A stretch of 64,000 nt of DNA from Candidatus Woesearchaeota archaeon (GTDB lineage: Archaea > Nanobdellota > Nanobdellia > Woesearchaeales > JACPBV01): NCBI GenBank assembly GCA_016180135.1, contig JACPBV010000007.1:41248-105247 (forward strand), in the 5' to 3' direction. The notes under the pieces were generated by a model. That model was not told the origin of the DNA and did not search any database. It worked only from the letters and a program-made list of their open reading frames with translations. Each line of letters starts with the position of its first letter. The first letter of the stretch is position 1. Below, in pieces: positions 9,565 to 46,331 of this stretch. A program made the position numbers and the translations under genes.

Positions 9565-12500
9565 TTGCTTTTGAGAATGGGGGATAACGGTTCAATCCAA
9601 CGGGAAGCGAAGGAATCTGATGACGATTCAGAGGAGTTTTCTGTCAACCTTTCGAAGATCAAAGGATTCTTTGGCAGGCTTAAAGGCAGGGTTTCATCAC
9701 AGAAAGTGGGTCATGAGGCTTCTCCGAAGGAATATATGAAACATAGCCAGATCGGAGAAGATGGGGAACCCGAAAAGGATTTGGAAACTGAAAGAGATAA
9801 AGAGCATCATAAAGGTAAAGGTCATGAGAGAGATGAAGACCATGACGGAGATGGGGAAGACGAGCAGTCAATCAGCCTAAACCCCCAGCTGGCTGCAAAG
9901 GTAAAAAAAGCACTATTCAAATACTGGCCGTATCTTCTTATCATTATTCCCATCCTCATAACGGTTAATGTCCGGGAGCAGACGCTTAATCTTACTATTG
10001 CCGATGACTGGGCAAGGAATGCCGTCTATGACTACTACAGGAACCAGATTACGGGGCAGGTGAGGCAGCAATATCCGAATCTTCCTGATCAGAATATCCA
10101 GGGCATCGTCAATGATGAATTCCAGAAGTTTGTTAACAGCAATCAGGCTTTGGTCCGGGATCAGATGAGGGGAACGGCCCAGAATTTCAAGGAGTATTTC
10201 CAGTATGAGTCCGGGAGTAAGAAATACGCTTACATGGGGGACATCGATTCTTATTATTGGCTGAGAGCTGCAAGAAACCTCGAGCAGAAGGGAACAATCT
10301 GCGATCTTATCGAAGACGGAAACTGCATCGATACGTATACCCTTGCCCCTGCCAAAGAAGGGATGTATCCCAACCTGCACCCGTATGCGATCTTCTACCT
10401 CTACAAAGCGCTCAAGCCGTTCAATAAAGACCTTACGCTGATGCAGGCAGAGCTTTTGGTTCCGACGTTCTTCGCCATCATCGTTGCAATCCTTACGTTT
10501 ATCATGATGTTTGAGGCGTTTGGGCCATTGGCTGCGCTGATATCCTCAGTCCTCATCTCGGTAAGCCCCATGTTTCTGACAAGAAGCCTTGGCTCCGACA
10601 CTGACGTCTATAATGTTCTTTTTCCGGTCATCGCAGTATTCTTTATTTTTGAGGCGTTCCATGCAAAGTCCTTAAAGCCCCGCATCATCCATTCCTCCCT
10701 TGCAGGCATCTTCCTTGGGTTCTACAGCTTCGCATGGGTCGGCTGGTGGTATCTTTTTGACTTTGCCATCCTGGCTCTTGTTATCGATTTTGCCATCAAG
10801 CTCTTTAAGCACGGGCACAAGGCAAAAGATTTCAGCATCAGAGGGCTCCGCAAATTCCCACACACCAAAGAATTTCTTTCCATCCTGCTTCCGCTGGCCG
10901 TGTTTACTCTCATCACCGTCGGAGCAGTCACCGACATCGGCAACATCACCACATTCTACAAAGAGCCGTTTGCCTTCATGAAAGCCAAATCGGCCGCTAA
11001 CCCAAGCTTATGGCCGAATGTCAAAACGACAGTCGCTGAATTCAATGAGTCTTCAGTTGAGACAATCGTTTCAAGCATGGGCGGCATCTGGCCTTTTTTC
11101 TTCGCATCTACAGGATTTTTGATACTCCTGTTCTACCGGTTCAGAAATTTCTCACGGGATTTCTTCTTTTTCTTTGTTACCCTGATCGCGCTTTACCTTG
11201 GGTATAAATGGGCTCCGGCCTATTACCTGCTGCTTGCGGTTATCCCCCTTACTTATTACTTCACCAACAGGTCATGGCCGCCGACAGTGTTTGTGATCTC
11301 AACAGCGCTTCTTTACTACCTTTCGACGCCGACGGGCACCAATTTGAGGCCATCCAGTTATCTGTTTATCTATGCCCTGCCTTTTTTGGCCGGAACAATC
11401 CTCTCCATCCGGTCGGAAGATGAGCATGACCAAAAGCTTTCTTTCCTTTTCTTTCTTTGGGTCGCTGCCTCGATTTTTGCTTCCCTCAAGGGAGTAAGGT
11501 TCATCCTGCTCATGGTTCCGCCTCTTGCAATCGGCGCAGGGATCACCTTCGGGTATATGAGCAGCGTCCTCTCAAGATTGGCAGCAAAGCCATTGAAGAT
11601 AAAAAAAGCAGTCATCTCGGCAATCCTCTTTTTGGTGTTTTCCTATTATCTGGTCGGGCCTGTCGGCGCAGGGATCAGCGTCGCCAAGAATTATCTTCCA
11701 AGTGTCAATGACCAGTGGTGGGATGTTCTTACAAAAATAAAAGACAATTCCCAGCCGAATGCCATCATCAACTCCTGGTGGGACTTCGGGCACTGGTTCA
11801 AGTATATTGCAGACAGGGGCGTTACCTTAGACGGCTCTTCACAGAACGCTCCCCCTCTGCATTGGCTGGGAAAAACTCTTCTCACTCCTGACGAGAATGA
11901 GGCCAGAGGAATCCTGCGGATGCTTTCGTGCGGGAGCAATAATGCTTTCCACGGCGTCAATGCGCAGGGCAATTTCACTCCGAAAGCGGTCGATGCGCTC
12001 CATACCATAACTGCCATCAAGGGCAAAGAGGATGCTGCAAAGGCGCTTCAGAAGCTGGGATACGAAGAAGAGAACATCCGGGCTGCGCTCACCTACAGCC
12101 ACTGCGATGCGCCTGAAGATTTCTTCATCACCAGCCAAGATATGGTCGGGAAGGGGGGCGTGTGGGCGCACTTTGGCAGCTGGGACTTCAACAGGGCATT
12201 CCTCGAAAGGACGTTCAGGGAATCAGGAAGTGAACCTGAATTTGCGATGAAGGTAAAAGAGCATTACAATTATACTGATGAGTTTATCCAGTCCTCTTAC
12301 CGGCAGCTTTCATCACTGAAATCGGATCAGGCGATCAACCAGTGGATCTCACCCTGGCCGAGCTATCTGGGCGGGCCGTCACGATGCAGGAATGAGTCAT
12401 CCAAGGCCACATGCAGGTTCCAGAATGTTGATGTGACTGTCAACCTGAGCAGGATGGATGCCTCAATCCAGACGCCGCAGGGGACCAAATATGTTGATGT

Positions 12501-12819
12501 CCTCAGCTGGACAACTCCTGACTCTGTTGTTTCAAAGAATTTCACCGGTGATACTATCGGCGTCGGTATGGTGCTGCTTATAGAGAAAAGCGGATATAAT
12601 GCCGTGTTCATGACACCGCAGCTTGTCAACAGCACTTTCACCAAGCTCTTTTACCTCGACGGCCACGGGACAAGGTTTTTTGACCTGTTTTCGGACACCC
12701 AGGGCATGAACGGCTTTTCCATCAAGGCATGGAAACTGAACTGGGAAGGGAGAAATGAGTCCATCAAAGTTGACAGGTTTAATGTGACAAACAGGTATTT
12801 CGGAAAGAATCAACCTTGA
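9565..12819 (+). CDS. aglB: archaeal oligosaccharyltransferase AglB (STT3 family) with acidic/His-rich N-terminal extension
   Basis: 13 predicted TM helices in the N-terminal half; WWDFGHW variant of the catalytic WWDYG motif at INSWWDFGHWFKYIADRG; long C-terminal periplasmic domain; the first 110 aa or so are low-complexity (DDDSEEF, HHKGKGHERDEDHDGDGEDEQ). Confidence 0.85.
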   Translation: MLLRMGDNGSIQREAKESDDDSEEFSVNLSKIKGFFGRLKGRVSSQKVGHEASPKEYMKHSQIGEDGEPEKDLETERDKEHHKGKGHERDEDHDGDGEDEQSISLNPQLAAKVKKALFKYWPYLLIIIPILITVNVREQTLNLTIADDWARNAVYDYYRNQITGQVRQQYPNLPDQNIQGIVNDEFQKFVNSNQALVRDQMRGTAQNFKEYFQYESGSKKYAYMGDIDSYYWLRAARNLEQKGTICDLIEDGNCIDTYTLAPAKEGMYPNLHPYAIFYLYKALKPFNKDLTLMQAELLVPTFFAIIVAILTFIMMFEAFGPLAALISSVLISVSPMFLTRSLGSDTDVYNVLFPVIAVFFIFEAFHAKSLKPRIIHSSLAGIFLGFYSFAWVGWWYLFDFAILALVIDFAIKLFKHGHKAKDFSIRGLRKFPHTKEFLSILLPLAVFTLITVGAVTDIGNITTFYKEPFAFMKAKSAANPSLWPNVKTTVAEFNESSVETIVSSMGGIWPFFFASTGFLILLFYRFRNFSRDFFFFFVTLIALYLGYKWAPAYYLLLAVIPLTYYFTNRSWPPTVFVISTALLYYLSTPTGTNLRPSSYLFIYALPFLAGTILSIRSEDEHDQKLSFLFFLWVAASIFASLKGVRFILLMVPPLAIGAGITFGYMSSVLSRLAAKPLKIKKAVISAILFLVFSYYLVGPVGAGISVAKNYLPSVNDQWWDVLTKIKDNSQPNAIINSWWDFGHWFKYIADRGVTLDGSSQNAPPLHWLGKTLLTPDENEARGILRMLSCGSNNAFHGVNAQGNFTPKAVDALHTITAIKGKEDAAKALQKLGYEEENIRAALTYSHCDAPEDFFITSQDMVGKGGVWAHFGSWDFNRAFLERTFRESGSEPEFAMKVKEHYNYTDEFIQSSYRQLSSLKSDQAINQWISPWPSYLGGPSRCRNESSKATCRFQNVDVTVNLSRMDASIQTPQGTKYVDVLSWTTPDSVVSKNFTGDTIGVGMVLLIEKSGYNAVFMTPQLVNSTFTKLFYLDGHGTRFFDLFSDTQGMNGFSIKAWKLNWEGRNESIKVDRFNVTNRYFGKNQP

Positions 12820-37036: not shown

Positions 37037-39892
37037 TTAACTCATCGAAAGGTTAGTATCATCCAAGGAATAAACCCAATAACCCCACCCGGCGGTAAAG
37101 TTCTGAAGCCTGTTCATCGACGCATCTCTTCCCTTGACATAGGAGAACCAATCACCCCAACGGAAGGAATAGACTCTGGTGATTGGCGCTGAAACCATCG
37201 TTTCGTTGATACCTATGCTTTTTCCTGAGGGGTAACCGATAAGATTCCATCCCCGCTGGAGCTCTATTCCCTGGGATGTGTTAAAAGGAATTCCAGCAAT
37301 CGTCGAATTCATGTCCCTGATCCCATAGGCCCACAGCGCCATTGAGGTATTCACTTCCGAGTCAGGTGAAAGGTTTAGCCAGTGACCGTCTTTAAATGTA
37401 AGGACGGGCTTAATTGGGTCCATTGAGAGCCTGCTGCCGATGCGCCTCACCGTTGCAGGATTGAACCAAGAAGGAAATGAAACGAGGCTCCAGCCTTTGC
37501 TGATGAACATTTGGCAGTCATCTCCAAGGCCATTATTATCGGAATCAGGCTGGCCAGGATTATAAACCTCCGGGCAGTTGTCTGCAAGCCTCGGGAGGAA
37601 ATCCTTATCTAAATCCTGGAATTCCGAAACATTGATGGAAAGGACTGCCGAGCCATTTCCGCCAAGAATATCTATACGCTCAGCATCTATGAAATAAGGC
37701 AGGGTTATTGCGTCTTCTGTGAAGTTTACAGAGGCAAAATCTGATTCATTGGGAACAATAACCTGGGAATCATTCTGATCAAAAAATGAGCGGGGAGGGC
37801 TGAAGACTGGCTCAAGTGCGAGAGAAAAGTTTAATGAATAAAGAGTATCGTTAAGGGAGGAGAAGACAACTGCTCGGTAGGAGGAATTTTCATCATCAAT
37901 ATTTTCTGCCCTCCCCGATGCAAGTGAGACGTTCCTGACAGAAAGATTTCCTTCTTCAAAAATAATTTCAGCCACAAAGCTCAGGTTATATTCTGGGCTG
38001 CTTTCCTCAAATATCCCGAAAAAATTTTTTAGGGAAGCATTGATATCCTTTTCCAGCTCTATCCTGTGGACCTCGCCAAATTCTGCATCGGGCCGATAGG
38101 AGTTCCTCATCAATGAATTTTTATAGGGCCTATACCAGTTGCTATAGAAGCACTCGCTGCTGCAGGTGATGCCGGCCAGGGAAGCCCATTTGGGGCAGCC
38201 TGAAATATCGCAGTTGGGAACCTTGCCCGGATTTTTTGGATTTGCTCCGGCATTTTTGTATTCATCCATCAGTCCACCGAAGGAATGCCCGAACTCATGC
38301 ACCAATGTCCTTACAACCTCGAATTTGTTATCTCCTGCATTGGCGCAATCAAAAAATATTCCTCCATCTCCACGGCAGTTTCCGGGGTCCTGCCCGTCCT
38401 GCGGCCTTGCGATGTCCAGCGGAAATTCGCACATGCCGAGGTATTCGCATCCCGCAACGATGAAAGCCTCTTTTTTTCCGATACCTGAGTATGGCTTGAT
38501 ATAAGCATGAGGCCAGAATCTCGGCTCAAATGAAAGAAAGACCAGCTGATCCCACTGAGGGCAGGCTGATTTTCCCAGTTTCCTTGCCTGCTGCTCATAC
38601 TTTTCGAGGGTAAACGCCGGCAGGGAATTTACGGCCCAAAAATTAAACTTGCCCTTATTTTCTTTAAAAGGGCTGACTGACATAAGGCCGCCAAGGGAAC
38701 CATTGTAATCAACAAAATCGGCTGCAGTCTGAAACCATGAGCTGATATTGGGAAATCCGCTTCCTACAAATACAACATCAATCTTATCCCTGCTTCTCCC
38801 GTTGATGGTGAGCCCATTGCATATCGGGCAACCTTTCTTGCAGATCCATCCGCAGTCAATGCCCTCTTCGAAGCCGTTCTGGAACCCGTCATTGCAGCTT
38901 ACTGTAGCGCAAACGCCGTTGCTGCAGAACTTCCCTTTGCAGCCTGTGTTGGATGCGCATTTCTTTCCGTCGGGGCATGGGCCGCACACTCCTCCGCAAT
39001 CAACATCACTTTCTAAGCTGTCTTTAATACCATTATCGCACGACCCAATATCTTTCCTCAGCCAGGGGTCAAAATTCACTTTCCCTTTGGCGCCCAAGGA
39101 CTCTTCATCGTCATAGATGGCCTGCTCGATATATTCCCCTGAGTTAGTTCCCCAGAAGTTGTTGATGGCGGTGACCTGCGCCTTTGCATTGTTGAAAAGC
39201 CCAAAGGTTGTGCTGGAGGTGATTGAATTCTGAGAAATTATATTTGTCCCATTATCAACATAAATCCCAACTGAATTCCCCTGGAGAAAGTTGTCAGAAA
39301 AAGTATTTCCATAGGAACCCTGGCCCAAATGGGCGCCTCTAGTGTTGTTCCAGAAGCTATTCCTGAGGAGAGTATTGAATAATGAGCCACTTTCAACAAG
39401 GATGCCTCTCGAGTTGTTTGAAATGTTGTTGTTGATAATTTTATTGCCATCACTATCAAAAAGATTAATCCCGTAGCCGACATTGTTCTTGAATTCATTA
39501 TCATTCAGTGTGTTGTTGTTAAGATACTTAAGGGTAATCCCGTCTGCACCATTATTCAGGCCCTTATTTGAAGCAAATGAGCCGTTTCTCGCACGAAAAA
39601 TATAGCCCTGCGCCGCATTATTCCTTGAGATGGTATTCCTGATAATCGGCCTATCTGCAAGAAGCCCAAGGGATGTATCACTTGTAACGGCAATTCCATT
39701 TGAATAATTCTCAACAATGCAGTTCTTAATGAGTATATCATCATCATAAGAGCTTACAATCCCATAGCCTATCCGTTTTCCAACAAGGACTGTATCATCG
39801 CAGTCCAGCACAACCCCATGCGCATCAATCTCGATGCCGCCTGAAAGCTTATATGTTCCCGGGCAGAGCGTCGTGTTTTCGATGACAACCAT
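37037..39892 (-). CDS. beta-helix / Cys-rich / M64-like metallopeptidase surface protein, C-terminal major fragment (951 aa) of a disrupted paralog
   Basis: Parallel beta-helix repeats; Cys-rich CGGVCGPC...GCKGKFCSNGVC module; HEFGHSFGGLMDEYK zinc-peptidase motif; TSP3-like DNCPEVYNPGQPDSDNNGLGDDC; conserved C-terminal KGWSL...GWNLIGYP...FTAGWGYWV; no signal peptide of its own. Confidence 0.7.
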   Translation of the reverse strand: MVVIENTTLCPGTYKLSGGIEIDAHGVVLDCDDTVLVGKRIGYGIVSSYDDDILIKNCIVENYSNGIAVTSDTSLGLLADRPIIRNTISRNNAAQGYIFRARNGSFASNKGLNNGADGITLKYLNNNTLNDNEFKNNVGYGINLFDSDGNKIINNNISNNSRGILVESGSLFNTLLRNSFWNNTRGAHLGQGSYGNTFSDNFLQGNSVGIYVDNGTNIISQNSITSSTTFGLFNNAKAQVTAINNFWGTNSGEYIEQAIYDDEESLGAKGKVNFDPWLRKDIGSCDNGIKDSLESDVDCGGVCGPCPDGKKCASNTGCKGKFCSNGVCATVSCNDGFQNGFEEGIDCGWICKKGCPICNGLTINGRSRDKIDVVFVGSGFPNISSWFQTAADFVDYNGSLGGLMSVSPFKENKGKFNFWAVNSLPAFTLEKYEQQARKLGKSACPQWDQLVFLSFEPRFWPHAYIKPYSGIGKKEAFIVAGCEYLGMCEFPLDIARPQDGQDPGNCRGDGGIFFDCANAGDNKFEVVRTLVHEFGHSFGGLMDEYKNAGANPKNPGKVPNCDISGCPKWASLAGITCSSECFYSNWYRPYKNSLMRNSYRPDAEFGEVHRIELEKDINASLKNFFGIFEESSPEYNLSFVAEIIFEEGNLSVRNVSLASGRAENIDDENSSYRAVVFSSLNDTLYSLNFSLALEPVFSPPRSFFDQNDSQVIVPNESDFASVNFTEDAITLPYFIDAERIDILGGNGSAVLSINVSEFQDLDKDFLPRLADNCPEVYNPGQPDSDNNGLGDDCQMFISKGWSLVSFPSWFNPATVRRIGSRLSMDPIKPVLTFKDGHWLNLSPDSEVNTSMALWAYGIRDMNSTIAGIPFNTSQGIELQRGWNLIGYPSGKSIGINETMVSAPITRVYSFRWGDWFSYVKGRDASMNRLQNFTAGWGYWVYSLDDTNLSMS

Positions 39893-40488
39893 GCCTTGGA
39901 GTTGGTGTAGGAGACAGAAGAATCCTGGATGTCATTGTCCCAGATGTCATTAAAGCTTGCGGTGTCGAGGGAGATGCTGTTCTGGGAGTTGTTGTCTATA
40001 AGGTTTTTTGTTACGGCATTCCCGCTGCTCTGGTCTATGAGTATTCCGCTTTCGCCGTTCCCCACAAACTCATTGCCAACAAGAGTGTTGTTTCTCAGGT
40101 ATTTCAGCAAAATCCCATTTCTGCCGTTGTTTACTGCTTTGCTGCCTGTCACCGTGCCGTTGATGGTCCAGAGCTCAAACCCATTGCCTGCATTGCCCCT
40201 GGAAATAGTATTGCTGATTGTGGGGCGATCTGAAAAGATGCCAAACACCGTGTCACTTTCCATCACAATACCGTCAGAATAGTTCTCGATAATGCAGTCC
40301 CTTATAACGACATCATCATTAAACTGGCTCTGTATGCCGTCATTCAGCCTTGTCCCCCTGAGCGTTGATCCATCGCAGTCCAGCACAACCCCATGCGCAT
40401 CAATCTCGATGCCGCCTGAAAGCTTATATGTTCCCGGGCAGAGCGTCGTGTTTTCGATGACAACCATGCTCATTGTCCCAGATGTCAT
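39769..40488 (-). CDS. beta-helix repeat fragment (239 aa), middle piece of the disrupted paralog
   Basis: N-terminus MSMVVIENTTLCPGTYKLSGGIEIDAHGVVLDCD is near-identical to the N-terminus of the 951-aa ORF; ends with the NNSQNSISLDTASFNDIWDN junction cassette; overlaps both neighbours in different frames. Confidence 0.5.
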   Translation of the reverse strand: MTSGTMSMVVIENTTLCPGTYKLSGGIEIDAHGVVLDCDGSTLRGTRLNDGIQSQFNDDVVIRDCIIENYSDGIVMESDTVFGIFSDRPTISNTISRGNAGNGFELWTINGTVTGSKAVNNGRNGILLKYLRNNTLVGNEFVGNGESGILIDQSSGNAVTKNLIDNNSQNSISLDTASFNDIWDNDIQDSSVSYTNSKAWLSSKTRRSAREHISFQAASRLMRMGLCWTAMIQSLLENG

Positions 40489-41095
40489 TAAAGCTTGCGG
40501 TGTCGAGGGAGATGCTGTTCTGGGAGTTGTTCCTTATGGCGTTCCCTGTAATGATATTACCGCCAGCAGATTGGAGATCTATACCATTGCCACGGTTATT
40601 TGCGATGGTATTGCCCCGAACTGAATTATTGCCCCTGTCTATAATCAAGATACCACCGGCATTATTAAGAACAGAATTTCGCTGTATCGTGCTGTTGAGG
40701 GCCTCAAGGTAAATTCCGGCTGAGGATTGGTTCCTGATTATTGAGTCCTGAACAATAATCTTTGATGAGGCGGTAAACCTCGCTCCGGTTGAAAAGCTTT
40801 CAATGATGCAGTTTTTGAGAGTGATGCCTGACAGGCTGTTTCCAACAATCCCATTTCCAGAACCTTTCCCGGAAATCTTAAAGTCATTGCAGTCAAGCGT
40901 CAGAAAATTCCTTCCGATAGTGAAACAGGTGGATGTTCCAAAAAGACCCGAGCCCAGAGTGTAGTTTGTGATTAAGGTATCGCCGCAGGCGCATGTTTTA
41001 ATGCCATTGCCGCAATTTGCGGCATAGGTAAAGCCTGAAGATATCACTACAACAATAATAACAGATAATATCAAGATTATTTTCGTAATATGCAT
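40424..41095 (-). CDS. signal-peptide plus beta-helix fragment (223 aa), 5' piece of the disrupted paralog
   Basis: N-terminal signal peptide/TM MHITKIILILSVIIVVVISSGFTYA; beta-helix repeats; ends in the same ISLDTASFNDIWDN cassette, then a frame change. Confidence 0.5.
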   Translation of the reverse strand: MHITKIILILSVIIVVVISSGFTYAANCGNGIKTCACGDTLITNYTLGSGLFGTSTCFTIGRNFLTLDCNDFKISGKGSGNGIVGNSLSGITLKNCIIESFSTGARFTASSKIIVQDSIIRNQSSAGIYLEALNSTIQRNSVLNNAGGILIIDRGNNSVRGNTIANNRGNGIDLQSAGGNIITGNAIRNNSQNSISLDTASFNDIWDNEHGCHRKHDALPGNI

Positions 41096-41216: not shown

Positions 41217-41609
41217 TTACTTAGGGATTACATCGAATGCATAATGGGGGCAAATCGCTGTTCTGCCACCAACTCCGATTTTGATATCTAAAGTTTCCCC
41301 CTTATGAACGGTCCTTTCAATTAAAGTCCTGCCATCACCAGCCCTGACTGCGTTTTCATCGGTAGGGGCATCATGGGAAGGGACCTCGATATAATCAGTG
41401 ATTGAACATGGCCCTTCAGAGAGAACCTGAATGACGGCATATCCCTTCCCGTCAATAATCCTATTTCTTTTCATAAAACGGGCAATGGACTCCCTTGTGG
41501 GAATGAAGGGATTATCGCTTTTTTCCGGAAGGCCTTCAAGGTTTCTTTCTCTATAAACAACAATATCTCCCGGCTTCAGGTTTTTTGCAGCGTCAAAGGA
41601 TATAGGCAT
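41217..41609 (-). CDS. hypothetical protein (130 aa)
   Basis: Well-formed ORF between the two beta-helix loci; no family recognised. Confidence 0.4.
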   Translation of the reverse strand: MPISFDAAKNLKPGDIVVYRERNLEGLPEKSDNPFIPTRESIARFMKRNRIIDGKGYAVIQVLSEGPCSITDYIEVPSHDAPTDENAVRAGDGRTLIERTVHKGETLDIKIGVGGRTAICPHYAFDVIPK

Positions 41610-41717: not shown

Positions 41718-44700
41718 TTACTTCCCAACCATCCAGCTTGATGCATTTTCTGAAAACACCCAATACCCAAATCCCGGCGTGAAATTTTGCAGCGTATTCT
41801 GGGTGGAATTTCTCCCTTTTTGAAAAGACAGCCACCTTCCGGCTTGAAAGGAAAAAACCTTTGCGGCTGAAACATTCTCAAGCGACTCATTGACATTGCT
41901 GCTTCGGCCCGAAGGATACCCTACCAGATTCCAGCCCTTTTGGATGGAAATGTTAGCAGGTGAATCAAAGGCGGCCCCTGCGAGAGAGAAATTCCCCCCC
42001 TCAAGAGCGTTTATGAAAAATCCAGATGCCCCATCTAATGAAGAGCTGTTTGTGACTCTTATCCATCTGCCGCCAAAATATGCAATAGGCGGTTTTGCCC
42101 AGTTTATGGGAATTCCTTCCATTCCGCCGGCGATTGTAGCGTTATTTGGCTTCGACGGAAAGGAAATAAGGCTCCAGCCTTTACTCAACTGGATCTGGCA
42201 GGCATCACCTATCTCATTGCCGTCGGCATCATCCTGCCCGCTGTTTCCGGCCATTGGGCAGTTGTCGGCGATTGCCGGCAGCATATCCCCATCCATGTCG
42301 TGGTAAGCAGAAATATTGAAAGAAGTTATGAGGGCATTGCCGGCATTGGCAATCTCCACCCTTTCACCGTCGGGATAATAGGGAAGAGGGATAGCCTCTG
42401 TCGTTTCGTTTACCAAGACTGCCGCAGATTTATCAGGGGTTGAGTTCTGGGTCCCATTGGCGTCAAACCAGTCAAGCGGAGGGGCATAGGCAGCCTCAAG
42501 ATTAAAGCTAAAATTGACTGAGCTCAAAGTCCGGTTGGAAAAGGAAATGACTCTGATAATATACTGCCCGTCTTTGGCATTTGCCGGGGATGAGCTGCCA
42601 GAGGAAAGGGAAACCGCTGCGATTGAGGCATTTCCCATGCTGTAATTTGCGATGATAAGGAAGCTGAGATTATAGCTTTCCGGCTCCAATGACAAAATTC
42701 CGAAGGGGCCTTTGGCTGATGCATTAATGTCTTTTTCAAGCTCTCTCCTGTTTACTTCACCGTAAGATGATGCAAGGTCGTATTGGTTTCTCATGATAGT
42801 GTTATCATAGGCGCGATACCAGTTAGTATAACCGCAGCCCGGAAAGCATCCTGTCGAATTCAATGATGACCATTTGCTGCAATCGCTGCCATCGCAATTG
42901 GGGATCCTGAAGGGAGGAAAGGCTGTTGAACTCCCGAAGTCATATTCATCATAAAGCCCGCCAAATGAATGGCCAAACTCGTGGAGGAATGTCCTCCTGA
43001 GCTGCGCCCTGGTGTTGCCGTAGACTGAGCATTCAGGCTTTGAGCCTGAGCCCTGGCAGCGAGTTGGATCCTCCCCTTTTGAAGGGTTGGCAATATCGAG
43101 AGGAAAGCTGCACGCCCCAACATATTCGCAGCCAGCCATCAGGAAGGCATATTTCCCTCCTTCGCCTGAAAATGGCCTTGAATATGCGTGGGGGATAAAT
43201 CTAGGCTTGACTGACAAAAGAACCATCTGGTCTATCTGCGGGCAATGGGAAGCAGCTGCTGTCTTTGCCTGGGCCTCATAGGGCTGGTGTCCGCTGCCAT
43301 CATCCGAGAAATTCTCCAGCTCAGTGACAGCCCAGAAATTGAACCTGGCTTTCTTTGAGGCAAAAGGCTCTTCCGACATCAGCCCGTCCTGCACACCATC
43401 GTAGTCAATGAACTCTTCAACAGCCTGAATCCACTGATTGGCATCAGAAAATCCGCTCCCGACGAAAACGACATCAATCTTATTTTCCCCATCTCCATTA
43501 ACTTTGACTCCATGGCACGTTCCGCAGGGATTAAGGCATGCCCATCCGCAGTCAATCCCTTCCTCAGCGCCGTTCTTTTCGCTGTCGAAGCAGCTCGGGG
43601 CTGCGCATTTTCCATTTCTGGAGCAGAACCCAGTCCTGCAGTCGCTGCCTGCGTTGCATGCCTGATCCTTGCTGCATACCCTGCAGCTTCCGCCGCAATC
43701 TATATCCCCTTCCTGCTCGTCTTTGTAGCCGTTGTTGCAGGAGCCAACAGCATCCAGCAGCCAGCTGCTAAAGTTGACTTCCCCCCTTATTCCCCCTGAC
43801 TCTTCGTCGTCATAGATGGCAGCGTCAATCTCAGCCGGAGAAAGAGAATTCCACCAGTTGTGTGTTGCGTTAAGGCTTAACCCCTGCTTATTGTAAAGGT
43901 TATAGATGCTGTTGCCAAATATATTATTAGCTAACACATTAATCATACGCTCCTCAGTGTATATTCCATATCGGTTATTAGCGATAGTATTCAGTTTTAT
44001 CCAACTGTTGGGAGATTGGCCCCAAACGCTGATCCCATACGTGTTGTTGATGATAAGGTTGTTTAAGACGGTTGTATTATGGGTGCGGTCATCCAGAACA
44101 ATGCCTAACGTGTTATTGAAAACGGAATTCCCAACAAGTGTGTTATTATTGTTTACAGTTATGAATCCAATCTCTAATACATTAATTCCAATTGTGTAGT
44201 TTTTTACAATGCAGTTTGAAATTCTGCTTGCATTGTTTCTATAGCTTATAAAAACAGATATTCCGGCGCCGCTCCCATTGCCCGATAAGACTGCATTTTG
44301 GCAGTCAAGGCCAGACCCTTCGACACGTATCCCATCAGGAAGCGAATATTGTCCGGGGATTACCATGACTGAAGAATAAATACTCAACCCATTGTAAAGA
44401 TAAATTCCTTCGCAGGTTGGCCCTGTCGCATTATCACCATAGCGGTTGCCGTATCCCTCAGAGCAGTAGATATTGGAGAAGTAGTAGGGGTAATATATTC
44501 TGCTGTGGATGGTATTGTTGACAATGGTATTATTGCTTGCATACTTGACGAGGATGTCGTTGGTATTGTTAAAAAAGGTATTGCCCGTTATGGTATTGTT
44601 GGTGAGGGGCCCGAGGGTAGATCCTGAAGGCAGCAAAGTTCCATTTGAGTAATTCCCGATATTGCAGTTTGCCAGCTTCGCATGACTGGGAGAATTGAGA

Positions 44701-46331
44701 ATGACACCGGTGCCCTGGCCGCTTCCCAAGAGAGTTGCATTATTGCAGTCAAGCGTTCTGTTGCGGAAGAGCTCAATCCCATTGGGAAGCTTAAATATCC
44801 TATTGAGGAGCTTGATATTTGAATTAACTTTTAATCCGTCATAGGGGTAAAAGCCGTCGCACGTCGGCCCCGTCGCATCACCAATATACATATTTCCAGT
44901 GCCGTTGATGCAGTACTGGTTATCATCTGAAAACAGGTAGTAAATCCTGCTGGTGATGAGGTTGTCCCAAATCTTATTGAAGCCGACATTTAACTGCCCC
45001 GGGTTCCATCGCTGTTTCAGGAAGATATCGTTTGTGTTGTTATAAAAAGAATTGCCCGTAATGATATTATTCTTTGGGTATGGCCCCATGAAAATTCCAT
45101 TGGAATAATTTCTAAAGTTGCAGTTGATGATTTTTATATTATTAGCCAGGGTAGTCCAGTCACTGTCGATGGTGATGCCGTTACCGGTGCCATCCCCTAT
45201 GAGGGTGGCATTTCTGCAGTCAAGGGTAAGGTTACCGTCAAAAAAAGATATCCCTTTCGGGATTTTATAAACTCCCGGGAGGACGACAGGGCTGGAGAAA
45301 AGGACAAGGCTATCATAGAGATACATCCCGCCGCACGTCGGCCCAGTTGCGTTCCCAATATAATTATTTCCAACCCCGTCAACGCAGTAAATTTGGGTCG
45401 AGATGGAAGTGTAATACACTGAGCTGGTGATGGTGTTGTCCCACACCCTGTTATAATTATTTCCCGAACTGATGTAAACATCCCTGTTGTTGCTGCGGAA
45501 GCTGTTGTTGGTGATGTTGTTGAACGATGCCCCGCTAGTGTAATAATCAACATTAATCCCAATGCTGTAATTCTCAATATTACAATTCTTTATGGTGTTA
45601 TAGTTTGCCCCCCATCCTGCATATCCGAAAAGCTTGATTCCATTATAGGCTCCCTTGCCAATGAGTGTTGCATTATTGCATTCAACCGTTATCCCGTCCG
45701 TCCACACCGTCATCCCGGAGGGAAGATAATATGTCCCTGGCAAAAGGCTGATATCACTGAGAATTCCCATCCCATTGTAGGGATAAAATCCCTTGCACGT
45801 CGGCCCAGTTGCGTTCCCAATATAATCATTGCCAACACCATCAACACAGTAATTGTTTTCATTTGAATACTGATAATAGATTCTTGAGTGGATAGTATTT
45901 CTCCATATTTTATTTCGCTTAACCCATGTATTAATGAAAATGTCATTGGTGTTGTTTATCAAATAATTATCGGTGATATTGTTATACTGGGTTTTCCCGT
46001 CGCCGTCAACGAGATGGATACCATCGCCATAATTCTTCACGATGCAGTTCTTTATGGTGCTTTGCTCGACTTTGTTCTGGAAGCCCCCATTTACCCTTAT
46101 TCCCGTCCTGTTTCCCACCCCTAAAAGTGTTGATTGGTTGCAGTCAAGGGTGATTCCGGACTTCTTGACGGTAATTCCGTTGGGCAAAAAATAGGTGCCC
46201 GGAGTGAACGTTGTCCTTACCGTAACCGTGCAGCCGTCGGTCGGCACAGAGCCGCATTCAGCCCCATAGCTTATTCCTGCGGCAAGGAGAAAAAGCAATG
46301 CAGAAAATAAAAATCCCCCTGTCTTCCCCAT
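41718..46331 (-). CDS. giant secreted sequon-rich parallel beta-helix protein with Cys-rich modules, M64-like HExxH metallopeptidase domain and TSP3-like repeat (1537 aa)
   Basis: Signal peptide MGKTGGFLFSALLFLLAAGISYGA; at least four internal repeats of about 150 aa (TLDCN.ATLIG ... NKIWDN.I.SRIYY ... YC.DG.GN.YIG.ATGPTC.G.YPY); CGGSCRVCSKDQACNAGSDCRTGFCSRNGKC; HEFGHSFGGLYDEYD; DNCPMAGNSGQDDADGNEIGDACQ; dozens of N-x-S/T sequons. Confidence 0.8.
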   Translation of the reverse strand: MGKTGGFLFSALLFLLAAGISYGAECGSVPTDGCTVTVRTTFTPGTYFLPNGITVKKSGITLDCNQSTLLGVGNRTGIRVNGGFQNKVEQSTIKNCIVKNYGDGIHLVDGDGKTQYNNITDNYLINNTNDIFINTWVKRNKIWRNTIHSRIYYQYSNENNYCVDGVGNDYIGNATGPTCKGFYPYNGMGILSDISLLPGTYYLPSGMTVWTDGITVECNNATLIGKGAYNGIKLFGYAGWGANYNTIKNCNIENYSIGINVDYYTSGASFNNITNNSFRSNNRDVYISSGNNYNRVWDNTITSSVYYTSISTQIYCVDGVGNNYIGNATGPTCGGMYLYDSLVLFSSPVVLPGVYKIPKGISFFDGNLTLDCRNATLIGDGTGNGITIDSDWTTLANNIKIINCNFRNYSNGIFMGPYPKNNIITGNSFYNNTNDIFLKQRWNPGQLNVGFNKIWDNLITSRIYYLFSDDNQYCINGTGNMYIGDATGPTCDGFYPYDGLKVNSNIKLLNRIFKLPNGIELFRNRTLDCNNATLLGSGQGTGVILNSPSHAKLANCNIGNYSNGTLLPSGSTLGPLTNNTITGNTFFNNTNDILVKYASNNTIVNNTIHSRIYYPYYFSNIYCSEGYGNRYGDNATGPTCEGIYLYNGLSIYSSVMVIPGQYSLPDGIRVEGSGLDCQNAVLSGNGSGAGISVFISYRNNASRISNCIVKNYTIGINVLEIGFITVNNNNTLVGNSVFNNTLGIVLDDRTHNTTVLNNLIINNTYGISVWGQSPNSWIKLNTIANNRYGIYTEERMINVLANNIFGNSIYNLYNKQGLSLNATHNWWNSLSPAEIDAAIYDDEESGGIRGEVNFSSWLLDAVGSCNNGYKDEQEGDIDCGGSCRVCSKDQACNAGSDCRTGFCSRNGKCAAPSCFDSEKNGAEEGIDCGWACLNPCGTCHGVKVNGDGENKIDVVFVGSGFSDANQWIQAVEEFIDYDGVQDGLMSEEPFASKKARFNFWAVTELENFSDDGSGHQPYEAQAKTAAASHCPQIDQMVLLSVKPRFIPHAYSRPFSGEGGKYAFLMAGCEYVGACSFPLDIANPSKGEDPTRCQGSGSKPECSVYGNTRAQLRRTFLHEFGHSFGGLYDEYDFGSSTAFPPFRIPNCDGSDCSKWSSLNSTGCFPGCGYTNWYRAYDNTIMRNQYDLASSYGEVNRRELEKDINASAKGPFGILSLEPESYNLSFLIIANYSMGNASIAAVSLSSGSSSPANAKDGQYIIRVISFSNRTLSSVNFSFNLEAAYAPPLDWFDANGTQNSTPDKSAAVLVNETTEAIPLPYYPDGERVEIANAGNALITSFNISAYHDMDGDMLPAIADNCPMAGNSGQDDADGNEIGDACQIQLSKGWSLISFPSKPNNATIAGGMEGIPINWAKPPIAYFGGRWIRVTNSSSLDGASGFFINALEGGNFSLAGAAFDSPANISIQKGWNLVGYPSGRSSNVNESLENVSAAKVFSFQAGRWLSFQKGRNSTQNTLQNFTPGFGYWVFSENASSWMVGK

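Follow-up and report, generated by a model that had tools for sequence, protein, structure and literature searches.

Results

Layout of the gene and its product

The 64,000-nt stretch of DNA analysed here (the window) comes from a metagenome-assembled genome (MAG) of Candidatus Woesearchaeota, a member of the DPANN archaea. It contains an uninterrupted open reading frame (ORF) on the minus strand at 41718..46331, which encodes 1537 aa plus the stop codon and whose product is identical to the NCBI protein HYU14_01720. From the N-terminus to the C-terminus, the product consists of a signal peptide, five beta-helix modules, a Cys-rich region, a peptidase domain of the M64 family, a beta-sandwich domain that we refer to as "mid", a TSP3-like repeat, and a C-terminal double module that we refer to as the tail; the coordinates of all these parts given below are likewise on the minus strand. 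NCBIfam and PDB sequence searches were consistent with the domain placement by Pfam. The Sec-type signal peptide (aa 1-23, 46263..46331; MGKTGGFLFSALLFLLAAGISYG, followed by AE) was recognized by its hydrophobicity, with the cleavage site placed by eye, and the only hydrophobic 19-mer window of the whole protein is found here, at aa 6-24 (Kyte-Doolittle 1.84). There is no C-terminal transmembrane anchor, as the last 60 aa peak at a Kyte-Doolittle value of 0.26 in 19-mer windows, and the NCBIfam models for PGF-CTERM and other sorting signals gave no match at E <= 1. A preliminary description of this DNA had proposed a secreted, sequon-rich, multi-domain protein whose end is neither a PGF-CTERM nor a transmembrane anchor; the signal peptide, the Pfam domains and the sequon counts reported below agree with the former, and the non-hydrophobic C-terminus without sorting-signal match agrees with the latter.

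A divergent M64 peptidase domain and its putative partner domain

The M64-family zinc metallopeptidase domain covers aa 941-1215 (42687..43511) and was identified by Pfam, by a profile comparison with the PDB, and by Foldseek. Pfam PF09471 matches aa 945-1139 with 31.5 bits (cut-off 26), and only the first ~170 of the 302 profile positions align. M64 peptidases are defined by the motif HEXXHXXXGXXD, in which the two His and the Asp bind zinc and the Glu is the general base (PMC12402451). In HYU14_01720, the motif is HEFGHSFGGLYD (42945..42983; H1117-E-F-G-H1121-S-F-G-G1125-L-Y-D1128-E1129), with H1117, E1118, H1121, G1125 and D1128 all being kept, and it is invariant in eight aligned relatives. 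The profile thus places the HEFGH region at aa 1117 in a peptidase family, and the M64-like peptidase of the preliminary description can be upheld; the HExxH...E arrangement assumed there has to be replaced by the HEXXHXXXGXXD signature with its ligands His, His and Asp (M64/metzincin type). Downstream of the motif, M1180 (NTIMRN) is conserved, and this IMR motif aligns to the CIMRD of ThomasA, the IgA protease of Thomasclavelia ramosa. When a profile of the eight relatives was compared with the PDB, the M64 structures 4df9 and 3p1v were found at E ~4e-15, and the IgA proteases of T. ramosa (9ekk and 9qdh) at ~2e-6. An AlphaFold2 model of the catalytic region from eight sequences was poor (mean pLDDT 50.6) and was not used for geometry, and with this model the top 17 PDB matches by Foldseek were all M64 enzymes (E 9e-4 to 9e-3, TM-score about 0.2), the next match following at E 0.12. 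Judged by its sequence, the domain is a divergent member of the M64 family, and it is probably active as a zinc protease.

Known M64 enzymes (ThomasA/IgAse; BF3526 of Bacteroides, PDB 4DF9/9QDI; BACOVA_00663, PDB 3P1V) have the same zinc motif and the same IMR Met motif, and for Bacteroides M64 proteins the motif is near-identical (HEFGHSFGGLADEY versus HEFGHSFGGLYDEY). They also have the N-terminal strand motifs kiDvvFvgeGy and ePF..kFN in common with HYU14_01720, and like the latter they are secreted and made up of several domains, with beta-sandwich domains at the flanks. HYU14_01720 differs from them in its archaeal host, in the lack of a detectable Peptidase_M64_N domain, and in its flanking parts, which are beta-helices, Cys modules, the TSP3-like repeat and the tail. 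A literature search for archaeal M64 proteins gave nothing relevant, and in a published survey of 15 M64 clusters the hosts are bacteria, fungi and trypanosomatids, with archaea not among them. HYU14_01720 extends into the archaea a family that has been familiar mostly from IgA cleavage and from gut bacteria and fungi.

The peptidase domain is followed by the mid domain (aa 1216-1340, 42312..42686), which is seen in an AlphaFold2 model (model residues 363-480). This domain of ~125 aa is predicted to be all-beta with a pLDDT of 70-90, and it has no match in Pfam. It always accompanies M64-like domains of this subfamily, whether in one fused protein or from an adjoining gene: in six proteins it is placed after an M64-family peptidase, and in one Methanosarcinales MAG it is encoded by a separate adjoining gene. 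P0017 and P0018, two relatives described below, appear by eye to have a mid-like stretch ahead of the peptidase, where the mid hidden Markov model found no match. We read this co-occurrence as pointing to a functional partnership of mid with this M64 subfamily. In the Methanosarcinales MAG (L026:1-1671, minus strand), the M64-like gene (HEFGHIFGNLADEY) ends in TGA and is directly followed by the mid-like gene, which has its own signal peptide and a C-terminal transmembrane helix, so this locus is a split form of the fused M64-mid pair, and it adjoins a tail-bearing gene. A pyrrolysine read-through at the junction was considered and rejected, as the stop codon used there is TGA and the mid-like gene starts with a signal peptide of its own.

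Next to mid lies a single TSP3-like, putatively calcium-binding repeat (aa 1341-1380, 42192..42311; DMDGDMLPAIADNCPMAGNSGQDDADGNEIGDAC). The TSP3-like repeat of the preliminary description is supported by the alignment of aa 1344-1379 to the type-3 repeats of COMP (3fby) at E 2e-4 (phmmer) and by D/N/C motif positions that are invariant in three homologs, but the Pfam match to TSP_3 (PF02412, aa 1345-1366) stays at 17.5 bits, under the cut-off of 25. The NCBIfam model MtsC also matches the repeat partially. The motif DxDxDG..DNCP...N..Q.D.D.DG.GD.C with its Cys pair is common to HYU14_01720 and to TSP3 of the COMP/TSP and MtsC types, whereas those proteins carry arrays and HYU14_01720 has one repeat that scores below the Pfam gathering threshold.

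Relatives of the protein

As a search with the whole protein was swamped by beta-helix matches, homologs were searched domain by domain. Only one full-length homolog was found among 5.8 billion proteins. The combination of Cys modules, M64, mid and tail was seen in four distinct proteins only, namely HYU14_01720, P0002, P0034, and a tandem paralog that is encoded in the window. A further sister protein, P0004, has the same Cys-M64-mid-TSP3 core and ends in a dockerin-like EF-hand pair at the position where HYU14_01720 has its tail (a weak match, E 0.42). P0017 and P0018 (~1550 aa) also join M64, beta-helix and dockerin and represent differently ordered relatives of the module set, with an N-terminal thioredoxin-like and multi-transmembrane (DsbD-like) region, PKD, the M64-like domain, a beta-helix, and the dockerin at the C-terminus, which is a precomputed PF00404 assignment in P0018 and dockerin-like by eye in P0017.

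The tail represents a large uncurated family

The tail (aa 1381-1537, 157 aa, 41721..42191) is composed of two tandem beta repeats of ~78 aa with the pattern KGW[SN]L[IV]x[FY]PS ... G.W ... G[FY][FW][IV] (internal alignment E 3e-5). Many of its conserved residues are Trp, Tyr and Gly, and it is the sole net-basic region (+5) of the acidic HYU14_01720. The preliminary description had already noted the conservation of GWNLVGYP...FTPGFGYWVF, which is indeed kept in both homologs. The AlphaFold2 model of the tail, calculated from 60 sequences, is confident (pLDDT ~90, pTM 0.79), and a Foldseek search of the PDB with this model gave no match (best E 0.16). None of 28 members of the tail family matched Pfam (at E <= 1) or NCBIfam.

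When 1.84 billion representatives were searched exhaustively, the tail matched 1765 representative clusters at E <= 1e-3, and a scan of species-representative genomes with a 6-sequence tail alignment detected it in at least 476 loci, often with several copies per genome. The archaeal hosts are Nanoarchaeota, Woesearchaeota, Aenigmatarchaeota, Methanosarcinales, Thermoplasmata/Methanomassiliicoccales, Methanocellaceae and Hydrothermarchaeota, and the bacterial hosts are Chloroflexota, Acidobacteriota and Saccharibacteria, and also Thermodesulfobacteriota. The tail had been considered a possibly novel attachment domain, and it is new in the sense that it is uncurated and structurally unmatched, but with more than 1700 clusters it is not peculiar to HYU14_01720. 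In 85 of the 95 ORFs from species-representative genomes, the tail ends no more than 20 aa before the stop codon (median 2 aa), and its fusion partners include CARDB, M12-like, M28, C11, GH2, FG-GAP and NosD domains. Secreted proteins whose enzymatic or adhesive domains are otherwise unrelated thus share this end in hundreds of genomes.

Based on this C-terminal position, on the modularity, and on the replacement by dockerins in the sister proteins, our best guess is that the tail would serve as a docking or retention module. Like dockerins in the dockerin/cohesin system, it is a short C-terminal module that is common to many unrelated secreted enzymes. There is, however, no similarity in sequence or fold between the two; the tail is all-beta, ~157 aa long, and without calcium-binding loops, and Pfam detects no dockerin (PF00404) in HYU14_01720. 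A second likeness is that to the GW modules of the Listeria proteins InlB and Ami, which are tandem C-terminal Gly-Trp repeats of ~80 aa. In Listeria, these modules keep secreted proteins attached to the cell surface in a non-covalent manner. As neither Pfam (PF13457) in the 28 tail members nor Foldseek against solved GW/SH3b structures gave a match, this likeness is a functional analogy at most and not a membership.

A different role of the tail, be it in substrate or carbohydrate binding, in oligomerisation, or as a secretion or pro-domain that is removed after export, must be weighed against retention. The conserved Trp, Tyr and Gly residues would suit it, as they are also seen in many carbohydrate-binding modules (CBMs), and so would the occurrence of the tail in archaea and bacteria despite their very different envelopes. 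Furthermore, a transmembrane anchor follows the tail in some proteins, which would make a separate retention module redundant. We nevertheless regard such a role as unlikely, since the extreme C-terminal position and the dockerins found in its place in sister proteins fit docking or sorting better, and Foldseek matched its fold to no CBM. The proteins with an anchor belong to Thermoplasmata/Methanomassiliicoccales (L014, L020 and L029), in which the tail is followed by an acidic linker of ~60 aa, a transmembrane helix, and basic residues, so that the module adjoins the membrane in these cases.

At 26 of 78 tail loci (L013:3598-4206, L067:3570-4472, L059:4435-6534 and 23 others), we also observed a second uncurated module after a signal peptide, termed ND, with the pattern PPLPSSFYG..VPDGT..VY.L.VPGDDP..EGG..GD.I.F. 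and without a Pfam match. In some cases it forms the N-terminus of a protein with a tail, and in others it is part of a small neighbour that ends in a transmembrane helix. ND is a possible partner of the tail; as it is absent from the 64,000-nt window, we did not use it to explain HYU14_01720. The wider idea that the tail is a general surface-docking or sorting device across phyla, perhaps paired with ND in an unrecognised system of the cohesin/dockerin kind, is tentative and in our estimate rather doubtful. Tail-bearing genes often lie two or three side by side, as in this window (L013, L023, L025, L031, L032, L035, L041, L045, L047, L058, L063, L066 and L067), which suggests surface-protein islands that grow by tandem duplication.

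The beta-helix array and the Cys-rich region

The N-terminal 55% of HYU14_01720 is formed by five tandem parallel beta-helix modules (aa 24-860, 43752..46262), as evidenced by Pfam, by the NCBIfam para_beta_helix model, and by a module alignment: M1 (aa 24-178), M2 (179-332), M3 (333-490), M4 (491-639) and M5 (640-860). Two Pfam families match above their cut-offs, NosD (PF05048; 67.6 bits, 1.4e-18, four stretches) and Beta_helix (PF13229; 61.8 bits, 7.8e-17, five stretches). M1-M4 share 41-49% pairwise identity, compared to 31-37% between them and the longer M5. Each of the disulfide-capable modules begins with a Cys-stapled cap, contains four Cys, and follows a fixed period of ~150 aa, which is seen as a periodicity of 447-474 nt in the coding DNA. 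The beta-helix assignment of the preliminary description was right, and its count of "at least four" repeats of ~150 aa is now corrected to five.

It could be argued that this array is the functional core of the protein, acting as a polysaccharide lyase or hydrolase or as a glycan-binding adhesin on glycans of a partner surface, with M64 as an accessory. The pectin-lyase/NosD-like fold is compatible with this, a similar role has been suggested in a study of Nanobdella (bioRxiv 10.1101/2023.10.27.564410), and the tail also occurs on a GH2 glycosidase and on beta-helix-only proteins. However, we detected neither a carbohydrate-active family nor a catalytic signature, and the short repeated modules of ~150 aa resemble spacers more than one catalytic solenoid. 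Moreover, it is the Cys-M64-mid block that is kept in P0004, P0023 and P0034, whereas the beta-helix part varies, and we hence consider a glycan-directed core function distinctly unlikely.

The adjoining Cys-rich region (aa 861-940, 43512..43751) had also been noted before, and it contains 13 Cys within 75 residues (aa 865-939). A four-Cys core, CX5CX4CX5C, lies between two modules of the type CxxGxxDxxExx[IV]DCGxxC. The region has no relative in Pfam, and a 7-sequence profile found no match in the PDB; the Cys module itself is also present in other secreted proteins of DPANN and Methanosarcinales.

Sequons and the AglB homolog

The "dozens" of N-x-S/T sequons in the preliminary description amount to 54, about twice the 25.5 +/- 4.2 expected from composition-preserving shuffles, and also twice the 27 occurrences of the mirror pattern [ST]-x-N. 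The comparison with the mirror pattern indicates that the excess is directional and not a mere product of the 11.5% Asn content. Per 100 aa, HYU14_01720 has 3.5 sequons and the paralog 3.0, compared to a median of ~0.4 in the other ORFs of the window, so that HYU14_01720 exceeds its neighbours about tenfold, and 39 of the 54 positions are kept in a 71%-identical homolog. The sequons are unevenly distributed, with 3.9 per 100 aa in the beta-helix modules, 7.2 in mid, 5.7 in the tail, 1.1 in the catalytic domain, and none in the Cys-rich and TSP3 parts. This distribution would fit a glycan coat over the structural parts, and HYU14_01720 is presumably N-glycosylated at its sequons.

A homolog of the oligosaccharyltransferase AglB/STT3 is encoded on the plus strand at 9565..12819 (STT3, 85 bits). 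The preliminary description was thus correct that an aglB gene lies in the window, but its co-location had to be rejected as evidence, as it is 29 kb away from the HYU14_01720 gene and no aglB was found within 10 kb of the sole full-length homolog. With 1084 aa, this homolog is of unusual length, and its own 15 sequons (1.4 per 100 aa) give it a higher density than any other gene of the window apart from the beta-helix genes.

A large, secreted, sequon-rich protein without transmembrane anchor could also be an S-layer or S-layer-like structural protein, in which the peptidase-like part is decorative or an inactive remnant. Archaeal S-layer proteins are typically N-glycosylated. We consider this highly improbable, and the S-layer-like role of the preliminary description is not sustained: no S-layer family was matched in Pfam or NCBIfam, the gene is tandemly duplicated (see below) and has a single full-length homolog among the 5.8 billion proteins, and the protein bears an enzyme domain whose catalytic motif is intact and invariant in the eight relatives. 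In addition, the S-layer proteins proposed for DPANN archaea are Ig-fold arrays and not fusions of beta-helix and peptidase (bioRxiv 10.1101/2023.10.27.564410).

The tandem paralog and neighbouring ORFs

Directly downstream of the HYU14_01720 gene lies a paralog locus that had been overlooked in the preliminary description. The C-terminal part of the paralog (951 aa, 37037..39892, minus strand) is 40% identical to aa 649-1527 of HYU14_01720 and comprises one beta-helix module, Cys modules, an M64-like domain (HEFGHSFGGLMDEY; PF09471, 30.7 bits), mid, TSP3 and tail. Two short overlapping beta-helix ORFs in other frames of the minus strand, 40424..41095 with a signal peptide and 39769..40488, probably represent its N-terminal part in a broken or misassembled state. 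An exact direct repeat of 99 nt (39796-39894 and 40371-40469) is found at the frame breaks, with an adjoining repeat of 94 nt, and an inter-module linker of ~50 aa is missing from the paralog (37037-41095). The split paralog may be either a misassembly by repeat collapse or a decaying or recombining copy. Between the two loci, an ORF of 130 aa (41217-41609, minus strand) matches no Pfam family and lacks an obvious signal peptide.

Discussion

Our data suggest, and we hold this with moderate confidence, that HYU14_01720 is a secreted, heavily N-glycosylated, modular surface protein with a working zinc endopeptidase, which would be docked by its tail. After Sec-dependent export, AglB would glycosylate the beta-helix, mid and tail regions, and the beta-helix array could serve as a rigid, protease-resistant spacer or as a binding surface. 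Like its characterised relatives, the M64 domain would cut beside proline residues, either in exposed peptides or in proteins of a surface, and this cleavage may serve the scavenging of peptides by an auxotrophic archaeon with a small genome or the remodelling of the protein surface of a partner. The mid beta-sandwich may be a partner that is specific to this peptidase subfamily and that regulates or positions the enzyme. The basic tail, finally, may attach the protein without a covalent bond to the cell envelope or to a partner protein, and we liken this holding role to that of the dockerin at the same position in P0004. An interaction with a host or partner cell is a speculation at this stage.

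Several points weigh against this picture. The model of the catalytic region is poor (mean pLDDT ~51), which leaves the active-site geometry putative. An insertion of ~70 aa with Cys residues, which is absent from canonical M64 enzymes, precedes the HEXXH helix, and the second metal site of ThomasA, formed by Glu and three Cys, is not kept, a different four-Cys cluster being found instead. It also has to be considered that BF3526, a close structural M64 relative, leaves intact proteins uncleaved (PMC12402451). The glycosylation is deduced only from the sequons, and the binding by the tail only from its position and modularity, and when we looked for a candidate gene of a tail partner in the 64,000-nt window, none was found.

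The preliminary description had regarded the combination of a beta-helix stalk with an M64 peptidase as unusual for an archaeon. Heavily sequon-rich beta-helix and peptidase surface proteins have already been described in a cultivated DPANN archaeon, Nanobdella, and the surface peptidases were proposed to act on the host envelope (bioRxiv 10.1101/2023.10.27.564410). The Nanobdella proteins are, like HYU14_01720, large (0.9-1.3 kaa) and secreted, with beta-helix repeats and 36-52 predicted N-glycosylation sites (bioRxiv 10.1101/2023.10.27.564410). In Nanobdella, however, the beta-helix and a thermopsin-like peptidase reside on separate proteins, and the peptidase proteins are reported to have a C-terminal transmembrane helix, whereas HYU14_01720 unites both functions in one protein, has a peptidase of the M64 family, and ends in the GW...GYW double module. 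The class of glycosylated beta-helix/peptidase surface proteins in DPANN archaea is thus already known; what is new is that such a scaffold is joined to M64 and mid in an archaeon, and that its tail is recognised as part of a large uncurated family.

In summary, HYU14_01720 can be seen as one more large glycosylated modular surface protein of small-genome DPANN archaea, with M64 as a new catalytic cargo. The main lead is the tail, a compact and confidently modelled module that occurs in thousands of secreted proteins and is absent from curated libraries and from the PDB. If the tail indeed retains or docks proteins, it would explain how exoenzymes of archaea and Chloroflexota can be retained at the cell without transmembrane, PGF-CTERM or LPXTG anchors, and it would provide a simple sequence marker for the prediction of surface-displayed proteomes in uncultured lineages.

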